This document shows positions 3,907 to 44,372 of a DNA stretch of 64,000 nt, piece by piece. Under the pieces are notes generated by a model. That model had not been told where the DNA came from. It worked only from the letters and a program-made list of their open reading frames with translations, and searched no databases. Made by a program: the position numbers and the translations under genes. The stretch's first letter is position 1, and the number at the start of each line of letters is the position of its first letter. The stretch is taken from assembly GCA_045603585.1 (NCBI GenBank), contig JAZUMK010000013.1:45914-109913 (forward strand). Reading direction: 5' to 3'. The stretch is from Clostridia bacterium. GTDB lineage: Bacteria > Bacillota > Clostridia > Christensenellales > CAG-138.

Positions 3907-4080
3907 ATGGATACCATAAACAATACTGCGATAAAAATAGTTGCGCTTTTTTCATGGGTCTGCATATTAAAGCTTATGCTGCCGGTCGGCACGATGAAGC
4001 GCAGCGCGGCAAAAGCTGTGGACATAGCAGCTATGCTGTCCCTCATAAGAATAATATCGGGAGTACTGCCAAATGGCTGA
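3907..4080 (+). CDS. spoIIIAF: Very short SpoIIIAF-like membrane protein (57 aa)
   Basis: Below the track's apparent ~60-aa size floor, so absent from it. Translation MDTINNTAIKIVALFSWVCILKLMLPVGTMKRSAAKAVDIAAMLSLIRIISGVLPNG* resembles the SpoIIIAF N-terminal TM region and occupies the AF slot. Confidence 0.55.
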   Translation: MDTINNTAIKIVALFSWVCILKLMLPVGTMKRSAAKAVDIAAMLSLIRIISGVLPNG

Positions 4081-4633
4081 AGAGAGAAGAAAACCAATAA
4101 TAGAAAAATTAGCGCTGAAGCTCAAGCAAAACAAAAAGCTGGAGCTTGGGGTTTACGGCGGTCTTGCGCTGCTTTGCCTGCTGCTTTGCATACCGGAGCG
4201 GAATGAAAGAAACGAGGCTGAGCTTCAGCCTGCGGCAGCCGCAGCGGAGGAGGATGAGCTGGAGCGGCGGCTGATGGATACGCTCAGCTGCGTGCGGGGA
4301 GCGGGCAGGGTAAAGGTGATGATAACCTACGATACCGGCACGGAAATCGTACCTGCCATGAATACCGATGTAACCTCCAGCGTAAGCGTATCCGGAGAAA
4401 ATCAGACGCTTACCGAGTCATCCTCTCCGATTACTGCTTATCAAGATGGAGAAAATCAGGCAATAGTTCTTATGGAAAAGCAGCCTGTGGTAAGGGGCGT
4501 TATTGTTGTGGCGCAGGGAGCCGCGGATATATCCGTAAGGCTGAAGCTTCAGGCTGCGGTGCAGGCAGTATTGGGAGTAGAGGCTGATAAGGTGGAGGTT
4601 TTGGAAATGGGAATGCAGGAAATGGAGGATTGA
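4073..4633 (+). CDS. spoIIIAG: Stage III sporulation protein AG
   Basis: N-terminal TM segment, acidic linker, and the C-terminal ...VVRGVIVVAQGAADISVRLKLQAAVQAVLGVEADKVEV typical of SpoIIIAG. Confidence 0.85.
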   Translation: MAEERRKPIIEKLALKLKQNKKLELGVYGGLALLCLLLCIPERNERNEAELQPAAAAAEEDELERRLMDTLSCVRGAGRVKVMITYDTGTEIVPAMNTDVTSSVSVSGENQTLTESSSPITAYQDGENQAIVLMEKQPVVRGVIVVAQGAADISVRLKLQAAVQAVLGVEADKVEVLEMGMQEMED

Positions 4634-4637
4634 CAAA

Positions 4638-5141
4638 ATGAAGCTTATCAAAAAGTATCTGGTGCTGGCGGTTGTGGCGGTGCTGTTTGCCGGGGCTTTT
4701 GTGCTGAACATTATGGCAAACGGAGACAGTACTGAAAGTGAAGCCGATGTATTTGAGGAAGCTATGGCTGAGGATGCAGAGCAGACCGTACCCGCAGATT
4801 ACTTTGAAACCTTTCGCAAGGACAGGGAGGAGGTAAGAAAGCTGGAGATGGAATACCTTGACGAGGTGATTGCCGCATCCGCTTCGGATCAGGAGACCCT
4901 TGGAGATGCGCAAAAGCAAAAGCTTGCATTGGTGGATAATATGGAGAAGGAATTTACCATAGAAAGCATGATAAAGGCCAAGGGCTTTGAGGATGCGGCG
5001 GTAACCTTCCATTCGGGAACGGTAAACGTGGTAGTAAAGTGCAGCGAGCTTAATGAGGGTCAGGTGGCCCAGATATTGGATATCGTCAAAAAGGAAACGG
5101 GGGAGCCGGCCAGGAATATCAAGGTTATGGCAGGACAATAA
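4638..5141 (+). CDS. spoIIIAH: Stage III sporulation protein AH
   Basis: N-terminal TM segment, YFETFRKDREE... region, last gene of the operon. Confidence 0.85.
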   Translation: MKLIKKYLVLAVVAVLFAGAFVLNIMANGDSTESEADVFEEAMAEDAEQTVPADYFETFRKDREEVRKLEMEYLDEVIAASASDQETLGDAQKQKLALVDNMEKEFTIESMIKAKGFEDAAVTFHSGTVNVVVKCSELNEGQVAQILDIVKKETGEPARNIKVMAGQ

Positions 5142-38525: not shown

Positions 38526-39218
38526 GTGAGCACTGTTAAAATACTGATTGCAGATGACGACAGAGTAGTACATGAGTCCCTGGGTATATACCTTAAATCC
38601 GAGGGATACGAAACGGTGGACGTATACAACGGAAAGGCGGCGTTGGAAGCATTGGAAAGCGAGAGCGGCATAGCCCTTTGCGTACTGGATATTATGATGC
38701 CGGAAATGTCCGGCCTTGACGTATGCAGAGAAATACGCAAGACCTCCCGGGTGCCTGTGATTATGCTTACTGCAAAGGGTGAGGAAATAGACCGCATACT
38801 GGGCCTTGAGCTTGGCGCGGATGATTACATTGTGAAGCCCTTCAGCCCCCGCGAGGTTGCTGCCCGCGTAAAGGCTGTGCTGCGCCGTACCAATGAGCAG
38901 CAGCAGGCTGCAGACGATGGCTGCGTAAATCATCAGGAATTGGCCATCGACATCAAGAGCTACACCGTAACGCTCCGCGGCGAAAGCATAATCTGCACTC
39001 CCAAGGAGATAGAGATACTTTATATGCTGGCGTCGAATCCCGGTCAGGTATTTACCCGGGAACAGCTGCTCAACCGTGTATGGGGCTATGACTTTGCGGG
39101 AGAGACCCGCACTGTGGATACCCATATCAAGCGCATCAGAGCAAAGCTTGATAATACCGGGCTCAATTGGAGCATCAAGACAATATACGGCGTAGGCTAT
39201 AAGTTTGAGGTTGAATAG
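38526..39218 (+). CDS. OmpR-family response regulator
   Basis: KILIADDD..., LDIMMPEMSG, ...TAKGEE..., KPFSPREV, and a winged-helix C-terminus ...VDTHIKRIRAKL...YGVGYKF. GTG start. Confidence 0.9.
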   Translation: MSTVKILIADDDRVVHESLGIYLKSEGYETVDVYNGKAALEALESESGIALCVLDIMMPEMSGLDVCREIRKTSRVPVIMLTAKGEEIDRILGLELGADDYIVKPFSPREVAARVKAVLRRTNEQQQAADDGCVNHQELAIDIKSYTVTLRGESIICTPKEIEILYMLASNPGQVFTREQLLNRVWGYDFAGETRTVDTHIKRIRAKLDNTGLNWSIKTIYGVGYKFEVE

Positions 39219-39222
39219 TTAA

Positions 39223-41163
39223 ATGAAAAGCGTATTCTTCCGCCGTCTGCTCATAGTAATGGTCATCGTTATGATGATCATTACCTTTGCTGTGGCGCTG
39301 GGCAGCGGTGCGATGGGCGAAAAAATATATGAGAGTATAAAACTGGATGAAATGATGCCCAAGGGACAGGCTGTGGCGAGCATGGTCAATGAGTACAGCC
39401 TTGGCAATATATCCAGCGATACTTTAATTCGCCTTGCGGAAAGCTACGTAAGGGACGAAGAGGCCACCACGATAATATTCAATGCCTATCAGGAAAACGT
39501 GCTTACTGCAAATGCGCCGGAAAATGAAGAATGGAGCTTGAACAGCGATGCGCTTGTAGGTATATATAAGCGGGTTCTTGCAGGGGAAACCGTAAGCGAA
39601 TCAAAGGTTATTGTGGATGGCATGGGCGAGGCGCTTGCGGCAGCCGTACCCATAATAAATTTCAACAATATTACCATAGGCGGCGTTGTTATTCTTCAGC
39701 CCACCCACGCCGTAAGCGAAGCAATGAACTCCATGCGAAGGATGATTTATGCTTTCCTTGGCATAGGTACATTGCTGATGATCAGCATACTCAGCGGATA
39801 TTTCCACTATATCACCGAACCCCTTCATGAAATGTCCGAGGCTGCCATAAAAATGTCAAAGGGAAACTTTGACATAAGGGCAAACGAGGCAGAGGAGGGC
39901 GAGGTCGGTCTTCTTGCAAGGGCGTTGAATAACCTTTGTGAAAATCTTTCCGGCACCATATATCAGCTGCGCTTTGAAAAGGGTCAGCTGGATGAGATAC
40001 TACAAAGCCTGTCCGACGGCGTTGTGGCGATGGACGGCAGTGGGGCCCTTACCCATTACAACGCTGCTATCATGGCCATGTTTGGCGTGGTAAATGTTGA
40101 AAAGCGGCAGGATCTGATAGCGGATCCCATGATATGGAAAGCATTTGACGAGGTATTCATTACCGGCGAATCTCAGTCCATAAATTACCCTGCCGCCGGG
40201 GAAAAGGTGCTGCTGATAAGCGTATCCCCCGTACACAATGACGACGGCACACGCACAGGCGTGGTAGGCCTTTTCAAGGATATTACCGAAATGGAACGCA
40301 CCGAGAAGATGCGCCGCGAGTATGTTGCCAATGTATCCCATGAGCTGCGCACCCCGCTTACGGCAGTGCGCGGGCTGCTAGAGCCTCTTTCGGACGGCAT
40401 GGTAAAGGACGAAGAAAGCAGGCAGCGATATTATAAGATAATGCTCCATGAAGTAATGAGACTGTCGCGGCTTATTACCGATATGCTTACGCTCAGCCGT
40501 CTGCAGGCCGGCACTGAATACATGGAGCTTTCCCGCGTAAACCTTGAGGAGCTTATTAACGACGTTGCGATAAGCTATGCTGCTGCAGCACAGCAGAAGG
40601 GCATATCTCTGGAGGTGGATTGCGTTTCTGCGGTAGATGCCCTTACAGACCCTGACAGGATAGAGCAGGTGCTGGTCATTCTTCTGGATAATGCAATGCA
40701 TTATACTCCGGAGGGAGGAAAGATAACCTTGCGTCTGCGCTCAGGGGATAGGCTGCTGATAAGCGTGGAGGATAATGGCTGCGGGATCCCCGAAAAAGAT
40801 ATTCCTCATATATTTGAGCGCTTTTACAAGGTGGATAAATCCCGCGGCGAGGGCGGTACGGGTCTTGGCCTTTCCATAGCAAGCTATATTATGGAAAAAC
40901 TGGACGAAACCATAACCGTGGAAAGCAAGGTGGGTGAAGGCACCTGCTTTACCTTTACGGTGCGCCGCTATATTTCCAATGCCATTGAGCTTGGGCCCGC
41001 AAATGCAGCGGCAAAGGCAAAGCAAAAGGAAGAAGCTGCTCATCAGTATATGGAGCATTATAATAAGGTTTACGATGCCGATTATGAAGTGGTCAGTTAT
41101 TCTGTCGATGACAAGGGCAAACGGGGAATAAATAAGAAAAAGGACAGACAGGATAAGGTATGA
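39223..41163 (+). CDS. Sensor histidine kinase (extracytoplasmic domain, HAMP, PAS, HisKA, HATPase)
   Basis: H-box VSHELRTPLTAV, N-box LLDNAMHYTP, G-boxes DNGCGIP and GGTGLGLSI. Confidence 0.9.
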   Translation: MKSVFFRRLLIVMVIVMMIITFAVALGSGAMGEKIYESIKLDEMMPKGQAVASMVNEYSLGNISSDTLIRLAESYVRDEEATTIIFNAYQENVLTANAPENEEWSLNSDALVGIYKRVLAGETVSESKVIVDGMGEALAAAVPIINFNNITIGGVVILQPTHAVSEAMNSMRRMIYAFLGIGTLLMISILSGYFHYITEPLHEMSEAAIKMSKGNFDIRANEAEEGEVGLLARALNNLCENLSGTIYQLRFEKGQLDEILQSLSDGVVAMDGSGALTHYNAAIMAMFGVVNVEKRQDLIADPMIWKAFDEVFITGESQSINYPAAGEKVLLISVSPVHNDDGTRTGVVGLFKDITEMERTEKMRREYVANVSHELRTPLTAVRGLLEPLSDGMVKDEESRQRYYKIMLHEVMRLSRLITDMLTLSRLQAGTEYMELSRVNLEELINDVAISYAAAAQQKGISLEVDCVSAVDALTDPDRIEQVLVILLDNAMHYTPEGGKITLRLRSGDRLLISVEDNGCGIPEKDIPHIFERFYKVDKSRGEGGTGLGLSIASYIMEKLDETITVESKVGEGTCFTFTVRRYISNAIELGPANAAAKAKQKEEAAHQYMEHYNKVYDADYEVVSYSVDDKGKRGINKKKDRQDKV

Positions 41164-42050
41164 CTTCCCACGGATGTACGCTGTGTCCGCGCAAATGCAA
41201 TGCGGATAGAATAAATAATATGGGCGCCTGCAATGCGCCCATATTGCCGTATATTGCAAAGGCATCTCTGCATATGTGGGAGGAGCCGTTTATCAGCGGA
41301 GAGCAGGGTTCCGGTACAATATTTTTCTGCGGATGCAATTTAAAATGTGTTTTTTGCCAGAATCACGACATAAGCAACGGTCAGATCGGCAGCGTTGCGG
41401 ATCCGAAGGCCCTTGCGGGTATTATGCTGCGCCTGCAGGATAAAGGCGCCCATAATATTAATCTGGTTTCGCCCGCGCCCTTTGTGCCAGTGATAGCTGA
41501 GGCTGTTGCCGAGGCAAAAAAACAGGGCTTATCCCTGCCCATAGTGTACAATACCAATGCTTATGAAAACGTGGATACACTTAAATGCCTTGAAGGCCTG
41601 GTGGATATTTACCTGCCCGATTTAAAATACGTTGACAGCGCCATTTCCCGCAAGTATTCAGGCGCGGCAGATTACTTTGAGCATGCATCCGGTGCCATTG
41701 ATGAGATGTACCGGCAGAAGGGATTGCTGGCTTTGGATGATAACGGCATGGCGAAAAGCGGCATGGTGATTCGTCATCTTGTGCTGCCGGGTTCAGTGGA
41801 TGAAACAAGACGGGTATTGGATTATATTGCCGGGCATTTTCCAAAGGAAATAAACATTTCTTTAATGAGCCAGTACGTTCCCTTTCACCTTGCCGAAAAG
41901 TATCCTCCGCTGGATCGTCCGTTGCTCAAAAGAGAGTATAAAAGGGCGGTGGAGTATGGGTTTTCTCTTGGGCTGGAAAACATTCTCACACAGGAAATGA
42001 GCTCTGCAACAGCTGCCTATACTCCGGTATTCGACGGAAAATGCGACTAA
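41160..42050 (+). CDS. Radical SAM protein (PflX / activating-enzyme-like)
   Basis: CGCNLKCVFCQN (CxxxCxxC) motif. Its ATG overlaps the kinase stop (ATGA). Confidence 0.8.
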   Translation: MTSHGCTLCPRKCNADRINNMGACNAPILPYIAKASLHMWEEPFISGEQGSGTIFFCGCNLKCVFCQNHDISNGQIGSVADPKALAGIMLRLQDKGAHNINLVSPAPFVPVIAEAVAEAKKQGLSLPIVYNTNAYENVDTLKCLEGLVDIYLPDLKYVDSAISRKYSGAADYFEHASGAIDEMYRQKGLLALDDNGMAKSGMVIRHLVLPGSVDETRRVLDYIAGHFPKEINISLMSQYVPFHLAEKYPPLDRPLLKREYKRAVEYGFSLGLENILTQEMSSATAAYTPVFDGKCD

Positions 42051-42093
42051 ATTGTAAACAGTTGATTATTTGTTAAAAAAGATAAAAATTGTG

Positions 42094-42122
42094 TTGCATA
42101 ATACAATATCTGGTGCTACTAT
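42094..42122 (+). promoter_or_regulatory. Sigma-A-type promoter with an extended -10
   Basis: TTGCAT (42094-42099), 17 nt, TGcTACTAT (42114-42122). Confidence 0.55.
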
Positions 42123-42129
42123 AATAATA

Positions 42130-42301
42130 TAAAGCGAATATATCGAGCTGTCCGGGATTAACAAGCATTCTTCATTGTTTTTCCTCCAAAAATAAACCGA
42201 ACTTTTATCGTTATTTCGCTTGTGCTGGGGGCATCTGCACAAAGCGATTTTCCGGACAGTATATTTGCTGGGAGCTCTGATATTATCAGGGCTCCTTTTT
42301 T
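42130..42301 (+). ncRNA. Candidate ~170-nt structured RNA (independent sRNA or riboswitch-like leader), family not recognised
   Basis: A bipartite ~20-bp closing helix (42133-42142/42260-42269 and 42148-42157/42250-42259). Internal hairpins at 42190-42216 and 42216-42247. A single-stranded UUCCUCC sequence. A strong terminator (11-bp stem 42271-42295 followed by T6). Confidence 0.5.
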
Positions 42302-42343
42302 GCGCTCATGGGGCATAGGAATAATATGGAGGATTCTTTGCCT

Positions 42344-43426
42344 ATGAACAAAAAACAGGTTATTCTGTCCCTTATTATGACGGCGTTGATTTCAGCTTTC
42401 ATGATAGTTTCACCCCGCTATATTGCAATGTCCCGCACCCCACTTACCCAGCATCGTGAAAATACTGTTTCCGAAGGATATCAGGGAATAATAACGGTTT
42501 GGCATATTGTGGGATTTAAACCGTATCAGGGAAGTCTCGGCACATGGATGAGCAATGCCGCCGCGCAGCTGGAAAAATATCACCGCGGGGTTTATTTGCA
42601 GGTGGACAGCATCGATATGGAAGAGTATGAAGCCCGCATTGCAAGGGGAGAGCAACCGGACGTATTCTCTTTTCCTCTGGGCTGTATGTATGCGGAGCAG
42701 CTGTGTGAATTGGAGCTTGAGCTGCCGGAATTGAAGGGAAATACGAAAGAGGCCGGATACCGCGAGGGCAGGCTGTATGCTGTTCCTTATACGGCGTCCG
42801 GATATCTGTTGCTGCACAATCAGAGACTTATGCAGGAGCAGGGAACAGATGCGCAAGGTATGACGGAGATGCTGAAAAGCGGAGCAGTTCCCGCTGCAGG
42901 CGACCCGGTGCAGGCTTGTATTTTCGGCGTTATGGGCGAAATGCTTGTACAGGAGGATTTTATTGAAGAAAGGGCGGTTTCTGCCTTTGTGGATGTACGG
43001 GCAGCGGGCGACCTTGAGCGAAAGGTGCAAAGCGGAAAAGGATTTCCCTTTGAAGTGCTGCCTTGCGGAAATTATACTGACCTTGTGCAGCTGATCGGAG
43101 CAAATGCAAATATTAAGCCTGAAAAGCTGCCGTATGTATACGAACTGATTGAGCTATGCCTGAATACAGATGAACAGCAGCAGCTTGCAGAGATAGGCTT
43201 AATGCCACTATTGGCGGAGATGCAGACAGAAAAAATGGATACAGAGGCAATAAACATGCTTTTTGAGGAGCTTGAAAATATAGCCGTACCAAATAGTTTC
43301 TTATACAAAACATATAGAGAACAGCTGAGGATAAGCGCTGCGGAAGCGATGCGTGGAAGCGTCAGCGCAAAAAAGGATATGGAATTACGCCTCAGAGAAC
43401 TTGTAAGAGGAGCGGTAATAAAGTAA
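42344..43426 (+). CDS. Membrane-anchored extracellular solute-binding-protein-like protein
   Basis: N-terminal TM segment MNKKQVILSLIMTALISAFMIV. ...ITVWHIVGFKPYQGSLGTWMSNAAAQLEKYH...EEYEARIARGEQPDVFSF resembles type-1 SBPs. The start is uncertain (42308, 42326 or 42344). Confidence 0.55.
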   Translation: MNKKQVILSLIMTALISAFMIVSPRYIAMSRTPLTQHRENTVSEGYQGIITVWHIVGFKPYQGSLGTWMSNAAAQLEKYHRGVYLQVDSIDMEEYEARIARGEQPDVFSFPLGCMYAEQLCELELELPELKGNTKEAGYREGRLYAVPYTASGYLLLHNQRLMQEQGTDAQGMTEMLKSGAVPAAGDPVQACIFGVMGEMLVQEDFIEERAVSAFVDVRAAGDLERKVQSGKGFPFEVLPCGNYTDLVQLIGANANIKPEKLPYVYELIELCLNTDEQQQLAEIGLMPLLAEMQTEKMDTEAINMLFEELENIAVPNSFLYKTYREQLRISAAEAMRGSVSAKKDMELRLRELVRGAVIK

Positions 43427-43457
43427 AATAATCATAAGTATACACATGGGAGGAACC

Positions 43458-44372
43458 ATGAAACACGCACTGGAACTTTGCGCCCGCAGGCTTGAAGGGT
43501 GCAAGCTTATAGAAAACGCACCTATGAAGAACTACACTTCCTTCAGAATAGGCGGACCTGCTGATTTGCTGTTTATGCCCCGCAATCGCCAAGAACTGCT
43601 GATGGGGTTTGAAGCGGCAAAGGAAGCAGGACTTCCCCTGGTTGTAATGGGAAACGGAAGCAATATGCTGATAAGCGATCAGGGCATCGATGGCCTTGTT
43701 ATTCGCATTGGTACGGATTTTTCCGGTATTGAATATGACGGATGCATTCAGAAGGTGCTTTCGGGTACCCTTATGTGCCTTGCGGCAAATGATTCGCTGG
43801 ACAATGGCCTTATGGGGCTTGAATGGGCTACAGGCATACCCGGTACGGTTGGCGGCGCTGTTGCAATGAATGCAGGCGCATACGGCGGCGAGATAAAGCA
43901 GGTGCTGAGCAAGGTAGAATGCCTTGTGGATGGCCAGATACAGCAAATTATACCCTCTGATGAAGATATGGCATACAGATACAGCAAATTCTGCGCACCG
44001 GATGTAATCGTACTTTCAGCAGAATTCAGCCTTTTGCCTGATGATGGCGGCGCAAAGGAAAGGGCAAAGGGATATTGTGAGAGCAGATGCACAAAGCAGC
44101 CTCTGTCCTATCCCAGCGCAGGCAGTACGTTTAAGCGCCCTAAGGGACACTTTGCAGGCGCACTTATCGAGCAGGCGGGCCTAAAGGGGCTCAGTGTCGG
44201 CGGCGCACAGGTAAGCACATTGCACGCAGGCTTTGTGATCAATACAGGCGGAGCTACCTGTGATGATGTTTGTACCCTTATGAAAAAGGTGCAGGACGAG
44301 GTATACGGCCGCTTTGGAGTAATGCTGGAGCCTGAAGTAAAAATCATTGGACGAGACGTATGCAGCTTATAA
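43458..44372 (+). CDS. murB: UDP-N-acetylenolpyruvoylglucosamine reductase
   Basis: [17 protein letters not shown]..., [19 protein letters not shown]. The start is 43458 or 43446. Confidence 0.9.

Follow-up and report, generated by a model that had tools for sequence, protein, structure and literature searches.

The stretch of DNA that was analysed, hereafter the window, comprises 64,000 nucleotides (nt) of a Clostridia bacterium (contig JAZUMK010000013.1). In it, a gene for a radical-SAM protein is separated from a gene for a membrane-anchored SBP_bac_8-like protein (the SBP-like gene, 42344-43426) by an intergenic spacer of 290 nt, which runs from the radical-SAM stop codon at 42050 to the ATG of the SBP-like gene at 42344. 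This start codon is preceded by the Shine-Dalgarno (SD) sequence GGAGGA at 42329-34, and murB, rapZ and whiA follow downstream. Within the spacer we predict an RNA of ~170 nt on the + strand (42129..42301), whose start would lie ~7 nt after the -10 element of its own promoter and whose end would lie in the U-tract of its own terminator. The original prediction, made from the letters of the window, had placed a discrete structured RNA here, flanked by a promoter and a terminator. Its elements were all present, within 1-2 nt, and the fold, the covariation and the invariant promoter columns described below bore it out. We regard the existence, strand, structure and conservation of this RNA as established with very little doubt.

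For comparison, 59 loci were retrieved with an alignment of the SBP-like protein from species-representative genomes, mostly metagenome-assembled genomes (L numbers below denote homologous loci). The SBP-like protein family is small, with 40 clusters, and the labels of the 59 loci were mostly Clostridia, Christensenellaceae, Christensenella sp. or Candidatus Pelethousia. A profile search detected the RNA element in 27 of them. The spacer with the RNA was more conserved than the neighbouring protein: nucleotide identities of 94, 92, 90 and 88% stood beside amino acid identities of 79, 67, 69 and 66% for the SBP-like protein, and a core of 35 nt was retained at ~89% identity where the SBP-like protein was only 38% identical. 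In 32 more distant loci with an SBP-like gene and the same operon, neither a match to the covariance model described below nor the core motif was detected. Where the radical-SAM gene was adjacent in such distant loci, the gap was only ~100-130 nt. On these genomes, the RNA appears to be restricted to a Christensenellales-like sub-clade of gut Clostridia.

The promoter of the RNA consists of a -35 element, TTGCAT (42094..42099, + strand), and, 17 nt after it, an extended -10 element, TG-c-TACTAT (42114..42122, + strand). When 22 homologues were aligned, the invariant columns 5' of the RNA were the TTG of the -35 element, which kept a fixed distance to the -10 element, the TG at -15/-14 and the TA..AT of the -10 element; the promoter spacer was variable. 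This pattern is characteristic of an extended -10 sigma-A promoter. Upstream of the -35 element there is an A-rich tract, which makes it plausible that the promoter is strong. A simple consensus scan passed over the promoter, because TTGCAT agrees with TTGACA at 3 of 6 positions only. Within the promoter spacer a near-palindrome was seen (CACAATATATGGTG; in the window ACAATATCTGGTG, 42103-42115), which is common to three otherwise divergent groups (spacers of L017, L023, L027 and L029). This near-palindrome, which overlaps the RNA promoter, may be an operator at which a dimeric regulator binds.

The minimum free energy (MFE) of 42128-42305 was -60.8 kcal/mol, compared with -39.5 ± 4.1 kcal/mol for dinucleotide shuffles (z = -5.25, none of 200 as good). 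The bipartite closing helix proposed earlier was recovered in the MFE structure as two helices on the + strand. The outer one, P1, has 9 base pairs (bp; 42133-42141 with 42261-42269) and varies between clades. It was retained in the near group, with a change from A-U to G·U in L008, and in the distant groups other short outer pairings or a 5' hairpin were found instead; P1 is outside the model that was tested for covariation. The inner helix P2 has 11 bp (42147-42157 with 42250-42260; 5' core CUGUCCGG at 42148-55) and covaries strongly. Further inside, two hairpins had been suggested. The one at 42216..42247 (P4, + strand), with the G-rich loop GGGGGCA at 42227-33, carries strong compensatory changes, and its loop motif RGGGCAR is conserved across groups; the other, at 42190-42216, was found in the window sequence but is not conserved in other groups. 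P4 is wholly absent in L015 (2809-2946; complete chromosome OY762936.1). The terminator with its run of T6 was likewise found, by a terminator scan, as an intrinsic terminator (42270..42301, + strand) with a 12-bp stem (42270-96) containing 6 G-C pairs and a loop of 3 nt. The MFE structures of 22 homologues shared one layout, with a closing helix, an unstructured arm and a local 3' hairpin.

To describe the structure across the groups, a covariance model was built from seven mid-group sequences with a hand-set structure, and 31 distinct homologues from genome and metagenome contigs were realigned. The window RNA was scored by covariance model R1 at 75 bits (E = 1.7e-14). In the alignment of the 31 homologues 95.3% of the cells formed standard pairs, compared with 72.9 ± 0.9% after shuffling and 37-49% when the partners were slid, and double-sided changes were found in 27 of 29 pairs; none of 500 shuffles reached any of these measures. 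A caveat is that this alignment was fitted to the model; however, the covariation of P2 and of the terminator was also seen in a MAFFT/RNAalifold analysis. The compensatory changes expected from the original prediction were thus present in P2, P4 and the terminator. For P2, 99.6% of the cells were paired and 7 of 8 pairs had double-sided changes, e.g. CG to UA and the reverse; in the L073 group the helix reads GGGUCGU/ACGACCC. For P4 the values were 85.8% of cells and all 10 of the modelled pairs, and for the terminator 98.2% of cells and 10 of 11 pairs, with ~33 G·U cells. A terminator was present in every homologue, and in 30 of the 31 it covaried and was followed by a U-tract.

The arm that follows the 5' strand of P2 contains an invariant core, UCUUCAU-UGUUUUU-CCUCCAA (42169..42189, + strand), with CUUCAU at 42170-75, CCUCC at 42183-87 and (U)UCCUCC at 42181-87. 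CUUCAU and (U)UCCUCC were unchanged in all homologues, and the U-rich spacer between them varied from 6 to 10 nt, a drift that stays within the range typical of the distance between an SD sequence and AUG. Read as its reverse complement, GGAGGAAAAACA-AUG-AAG, the core is the complement of an SD sequence, a spacer and AUG AAG. It was retained even in L015, where P4 is lost. The original prediction had noticed an unpaired anti-SD stretch, which holds for CCUCC (mean unpaired probability 0.84 from the partition function), but not for the U-run before it, which is predicted to be weakly paired; it had overlooked the anti-start-codon CUUCAU (0.65), which extends the seed to the complement of a whole initiation region. 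For the spacer of the core the mean unpaired probability was 0.18, as it is predicted to pair mostly, and weakly, with the A-rich strand after P2. This pairing, P3, was considered as a helix of its own and retained as optional only: with -0.4 to -7.5 kcal/mol (mean z = -1.2) it was weak, and the far group lacks it. P3 lacks covariation because its 3' strand is invariant. The core was also used as a DNA pattern to scan metagenome contigs independently of context. The scan returned 120 stretches, of which ~45 were genuine copies. The remaining matches were false positives, ordinary gene starts on the opposite strand (e.g. of MKK... lipoproteins), and not targets.

That the core reads as a textbook start site on the minus strand raises the question of whether the conserved feature is a small open reading frame (ORF) there, or a type I toxin, with the conserved ribosome-binding site GGAGGAAAAACA-AUG-AAG and with the + strand RNA as its antisense. 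The distance of 6-10 nt from SD to AUG is that of real genes, and the pattern fits many ordinary gene starts elsewhere. However, the minus-strand frame is 4-80 codons long and shifts between close relatives, and in the window it has 5 codons (MKNAC*). Conservation follows the helices of the RNA, and their partner strands are 110 nt distant, outside the ORF. Read from the minus strand, the ~33 G·U cells of the terminator would turn into C·A mismatches; promoter and U-tract terminator both have the + orientation, and the opposite strand folds worse (z = -3.78). From the G·U cells, the promoter and the U-tract we concluded that the + strand is the RNA, and a conserved minus-strand ORF is in our judgement very improbable.

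The original prediction could not match the RNA to a known family, and the Rfam check agreed with this. At the gathering score, Rfam 15 matched nothing across the whole 64-kb window, nor in the 13 homologous loci that were scanned. With permissive filters and E<=10, 41950-42450 gave three matches at chance level, none of which overlapped the RNA sensibly. No similarity to the RNA region was found in phage or plasmid records, and a literature search returned nothing relevant on a murB-associated RNA motif or on small RNAs (sRNAs) of Christensenellaceae. On these comparisons the RNA family is new relative to Rfam 15. A divergent 6S-like RNA, or another housekeeping RNA missed by the Rfam models, would share with the present RNA its length of ~170 nt, its long closing stem and its promoter, which is conserved and probably strong. 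Still, 6S RNA gave no match at E<=10 with permissive filters, a terminal stem between the 5' and 3' halves is not formed and the central bubble is absent, so that 6S RNA is the poor fit it had been thought to be. The 3' half is a local hairpin which is dispensable in L015, and the restriction to a sub-clade, with absence from related lineages, is unlike a housekeeping RNA. We consider this explanation to be highly unlikely.

From the sequences, we put at about even the chance that the RNA is an independently transcribed base-pairing sRNA whose anti-SD and anti-AUG seed occludes initiation regions. It has, at the level of sequence, a promoter and a terminator of its own, as an sRNA should, and a conserved single-stranded seed that is predicted to be accessible. 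As an sRNA it would start at its extended -10 sigma-A-type promoter, run along the + strand and stop at its intrinsic terminator. The closing helix, made of the variable P1 and the conserved P2, encloses a long, mostly unstructured 5' arm and the stable P4, and the arm presents CUUCAU-N6-10-CCUCC, an anti-start-codon and an anti-SD with ribosome-like spacing. We infer that the RNA would pair in trans with the SD GGAGG(A) and the AUG AAG of one or more mRNAs and so block 30S binding. The terminator may in addition restrain transcription from the RNA promoter, and from the upstream operon with the WalRK-like and radical-SAM genes, into SBP-like-murB-rapZ-whiA.

Several observations weigh against the sRNA reading. 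The first is that a target was not found, in a search which covered the ~64-kb window and 7-15 kb of each homologous locus. The window contained no site with <=3 mismatches from the complement of the core, save the antisense of the RNA itself, and the initiation regions of the SBP-like, murB, rapZ, radical-SAM and histidine kinase genes were not consistently complementary to the core. Rankings by duplex energy did not discriminate, being dominated by non-specific matches. A stretch of 20 nt that is invariant across deep divergence would, moreover, need an equally invariant target. As no target was identified, the trans model rests on the architecture of the RNA. The second is the behaviour of the RNA as a cis element: its synteny with the downstream operon is almost perfect, and in L015, L021/L013 and L166, which lack an adjacent radical-SAM gene, the RNA is still found beside the SBP-like gene. 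The third is the distance from the terminator to the SBP-like start in the window, a spacer of 42 nt without a recognisable -35 element, so that the operon may depend on read-through. Two candidate targets were examined and rejected. The start of murB looked like a possible target in the L005-L008 group (GGAGGAAnnAUGAAG) but did not hold up in the mid and far groups, and a spoIIIAH-like start (GGAGGATTGACAAAATGAAG, 4624-4643), the sole other GGAGG-N-ATGAAG in the window, was judged coincidental.

The same synteny is what one would expect if the RNA were a cis-acting 5' leader or attenuator of SBP-like-murB-rapZ-whiA. The structured domain would then bind a factor, either a metabolite (e.g. one of the peptidoglycan precursors) or a protein (RapZ, WhiA or an antiterminator), and this factor would determine the amount of read-through at the terminator. 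The genuine copies from the pattern scan are all on the same strand, and all but that of L078 lie directly 5' of the SBP-like gene, with which the RNA keeps company when the radical-SAM gene is displaced. The spacer to the SBP-like gene is short (~40-125 nt), the closing helix is followed by a terminator as in riboswitch leaders, and murB is essential, which requires either some read-through or another promoter. Since no -35 element is evident in the 42 nt after the terminator, transcription that starts at the RNA promoter and reads through may still contribute. In a variant of this reading the anti-SD might also mask the downstream SD in read-through transcripts, a pairing that would be a pseudoknot and is beyond RNAfold.

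The behaviour of the terminator argues against the leader in its classical form. An antiterminator between 42140-49 and the 5' arm of the terminator had been suggested, but this pairing was seen only in the near relatives of the window, its position is not conserved, and no conserved antiterminator overlapping the sensor domain was found among the 31 homologues. In transcripts truncated before the 3' arm of the terminator, the 5' arm was unpaired in 20 of the 31 homologues and its partners were scattered in the rest. Forbidding the terminator cost 10-22 kcal/mol without any compensating structure, and when either strand of P2 or the whole 5' end was blocked, the terminator still formed with a probability of 0.8-1.0. 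Given this insulation of the terminator and the lack of a conserved antiterminator, a classical RNA-intrinsic riboswitch, whether OFF or ON, finds no support. The part that would correspond to an aptamer survives the loss of P4 in L015 and indels in the core (spacing 6-10 nt), and the complementarity of the core to the SBP-like start is no more than that to a generic SD. Of the two alternatives in the original prediction, the evidence favours the independent sRNA with its C-rich seed; the riboswitch-like OFF leader has lost ground through the insulated terminator, the missing antiterminator and the lack of conservation of the first inner hairpin.

The leader reading is further opposed by two loci in which the RNA and the operon are separated. 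In L078 (1840-2000) the RNA has kept its place beside the radical-SAM gene, and the gene after it, for a membrane protein, is convergent, so that the RNA is no leader there; the terminator stem in this locus is without a U-tract. In L014 short palindromes replace the RNA gene, and the spacer and the operon persist. At the site of the RNA (L014:60-300) five short GC-rich palindromic hairpins were seen (e.g. gccgccccttaaggggcagc, aaccgcccgttcgacgggcggttt) in a locus that otherwise resembles L019. These could be the insertion of a repeat element or an assembly artefact at a contig end.

A box resembling a -10 element, which is conserved 3' of the terminator, also counts against the leader reading. 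This box, of the type GCATAnnnT(A) (GCATAGGAAT, 42313..42322, + strand), lies between the terminator and the SBP-like SD, and its role is uncertain. It was found 8-20 nt 5' of the SBP-like SD and is conserved in nearly all loci (L001-L055), L014 included, where the RNA gene is gone. A comparable GCATA-type box stands ahead of murB (CATAAGTATACA, window ~43430-43443), and a TTGCAT was found 19 nt 5' of the GCATA box in L019, L055, L014 and L009. CATAnnnTA is the consensus of the mother-cell sigma factors of B. subtilis, and the box may be a -10 element of the downstream operon, either of the TAnnnT type or of the mother-cell-sigma CATAnnnTA type. On all this evidence we consider a factor-dependent cis leader to be possible but rather doubtful.

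The genes around the RNA have a constant order. In the genuine copies the gene for a WalK-like histidine kinase is followed by the radical-SAM gene, the RNA, the SBP-like gene, murB, rapZ and whiA, all in one orientation. In the window the response regulator and the histidine kinase had WalR(YycF)/MtrA and WalK as their best NCBIfam models, below the equivalog cut-offs. The start of the radical-SAM gene, which is activase-like, overlaps the stop codon of the kinase (ATGA), and the trio of regulator, kinase and radical-SAM gene (window 38526-42050) keeps its synteny with the RNA in nearly all loci. The SBP-like protein was not assigned by NCBIfam; its gene is found directly 5' of murB-rapZ-whiA in many Clostridia, whether the RNA is present or not (L001-L059), and is not flanked by genes for ABC transporters. 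Some of the listed ORF starts are probably too far 5': the SBP-like gene more likely starts at ATG 42344 than at 42308 (window 42308-42346), and murB at ATG 43458 with the SD GGGAGGAA (window 43446-43460). Genes resembling those for SpoIIIAG and SpoIIIAH (window 4073-5141) were identified by eye from their translations, and on account of these genes the organism is probably a spore-former.

The RNA lies two genes upstream of rapZ, in a conserved position and in the same orientation, which suggests that it could bind or sequester a protein, e.g. RapZ, as a functional analogue of GlmZ/GlmY, with the core and the P4 loop as the protein contacts. The E. coli RapZ is a precedent, being an sRNA-binding adaptor for GlmZ/GlmY in the control of cell-envelope precursors (PMC7073468, PMC7525490), and the core and the RGGGCAR loop, both invariant and single-stranded, fit recognition by a protein. 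Against this, rapZ is present in all of the ~50 related operons, including those that lack the RNA, and the Rfam models of GlmZ (GlmZ_SraJ) and GlmY (GlmY_tke1) do not match. The architecture is unlike that of GlmZ, and the exact complementarity of the core to an initiation region speaks for pairing between RNAs. A protein-binding RNA is therefore improbable in our view.

If the RNA is the base-pairing sRNA that we prefer, a more specific and speculative model, which we advance as an outside chance, is that of an 'initiation-site clamp'. In this model CCUCC and an anticodon-like CAU triplet, 6-10 nt apart, would grip the SD and the AUG of a target without complementarity in the spacer, and the RNA might be the long-missing RNA component of the Gram-positive RapZ pathway. 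Such a clamp would account for a spacing that drifts no further than the range of SD-AUG distances. If it were true, the RNA could be a post-transcriptional arm of a cell-wall module that consists of the WalRK-like two-component system and murB-rapZ-whiA.

The Christensenellales are heritable, health-associated bacteria of the gut, and to our knowledge RNA regulators are essentially undescribed in them. Should the RNA act in trans, it would offer a first way into the post-transcriptional control of this clade, and possibly into the role of the RapZ homologues in Firmicutes; should it act in cis, an essential peptidoglycan gene would have a factor-dependent attenuator of a new kind. The alignment and the covariance model are usable for annotation.

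The RNA can be compared with four kinds of known systems. GlmZ, whose gene does not lie beside rapZ, is an activator of glmS through an anti-antisense mechanism; the RNA described here has a seed that is repressive in design, with anti-SD and anti-AUG parts. It resembles the GlmZ/GlmY-RapZ system of Enterobacteria in the link to genes for envelope precursors (PMC7073468), here with a rapZ homologue nearby, and in having a single-stranded pairing region followed by a terminator. The likeness to riboswitches and attenuators consists in the position on the same strand 5' of an operon, the covarying closing helix, the terminator and the short spacer; the differences are the absence of a mutually exclusive antiterminator, the insulation of the terminator from the upstream domain, the indels in the core, the hairpin lost in one lineage and the separation of RNA and operon in some lineages. 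It is similar to 6S RNA in size and in the pairing of its 5' and 3' ends by a long closing stem. The closest comparison in kind is with the sRNAs of Firmicutes that have C-rich seeds. These are independent transcripts of ~100-500 nt with an intrinsic terminator in low-GC Gram-positives, and in RsaE/RoxS, FsrA and the hairpins of S. aureus RNAIII accessible C-rich motifs pair with the SD of the target and block initiation. The present RNA is alike in kind, but shares no homology of sequence or structure with RsaE/RoxS, FsrA and RNAIII, whose Rfam models it did not match. Instead of repeated CCC/UCCC loops its seed has CCUCC, the exact anti-SD core of 16S rRNA, together with CUUCAU 6-10 nt upstream, and unlike the seeds of those sRNAs it lies inside a loop closed by a long covarying helix, at a locus that is fixed beside a cell-wall operon.

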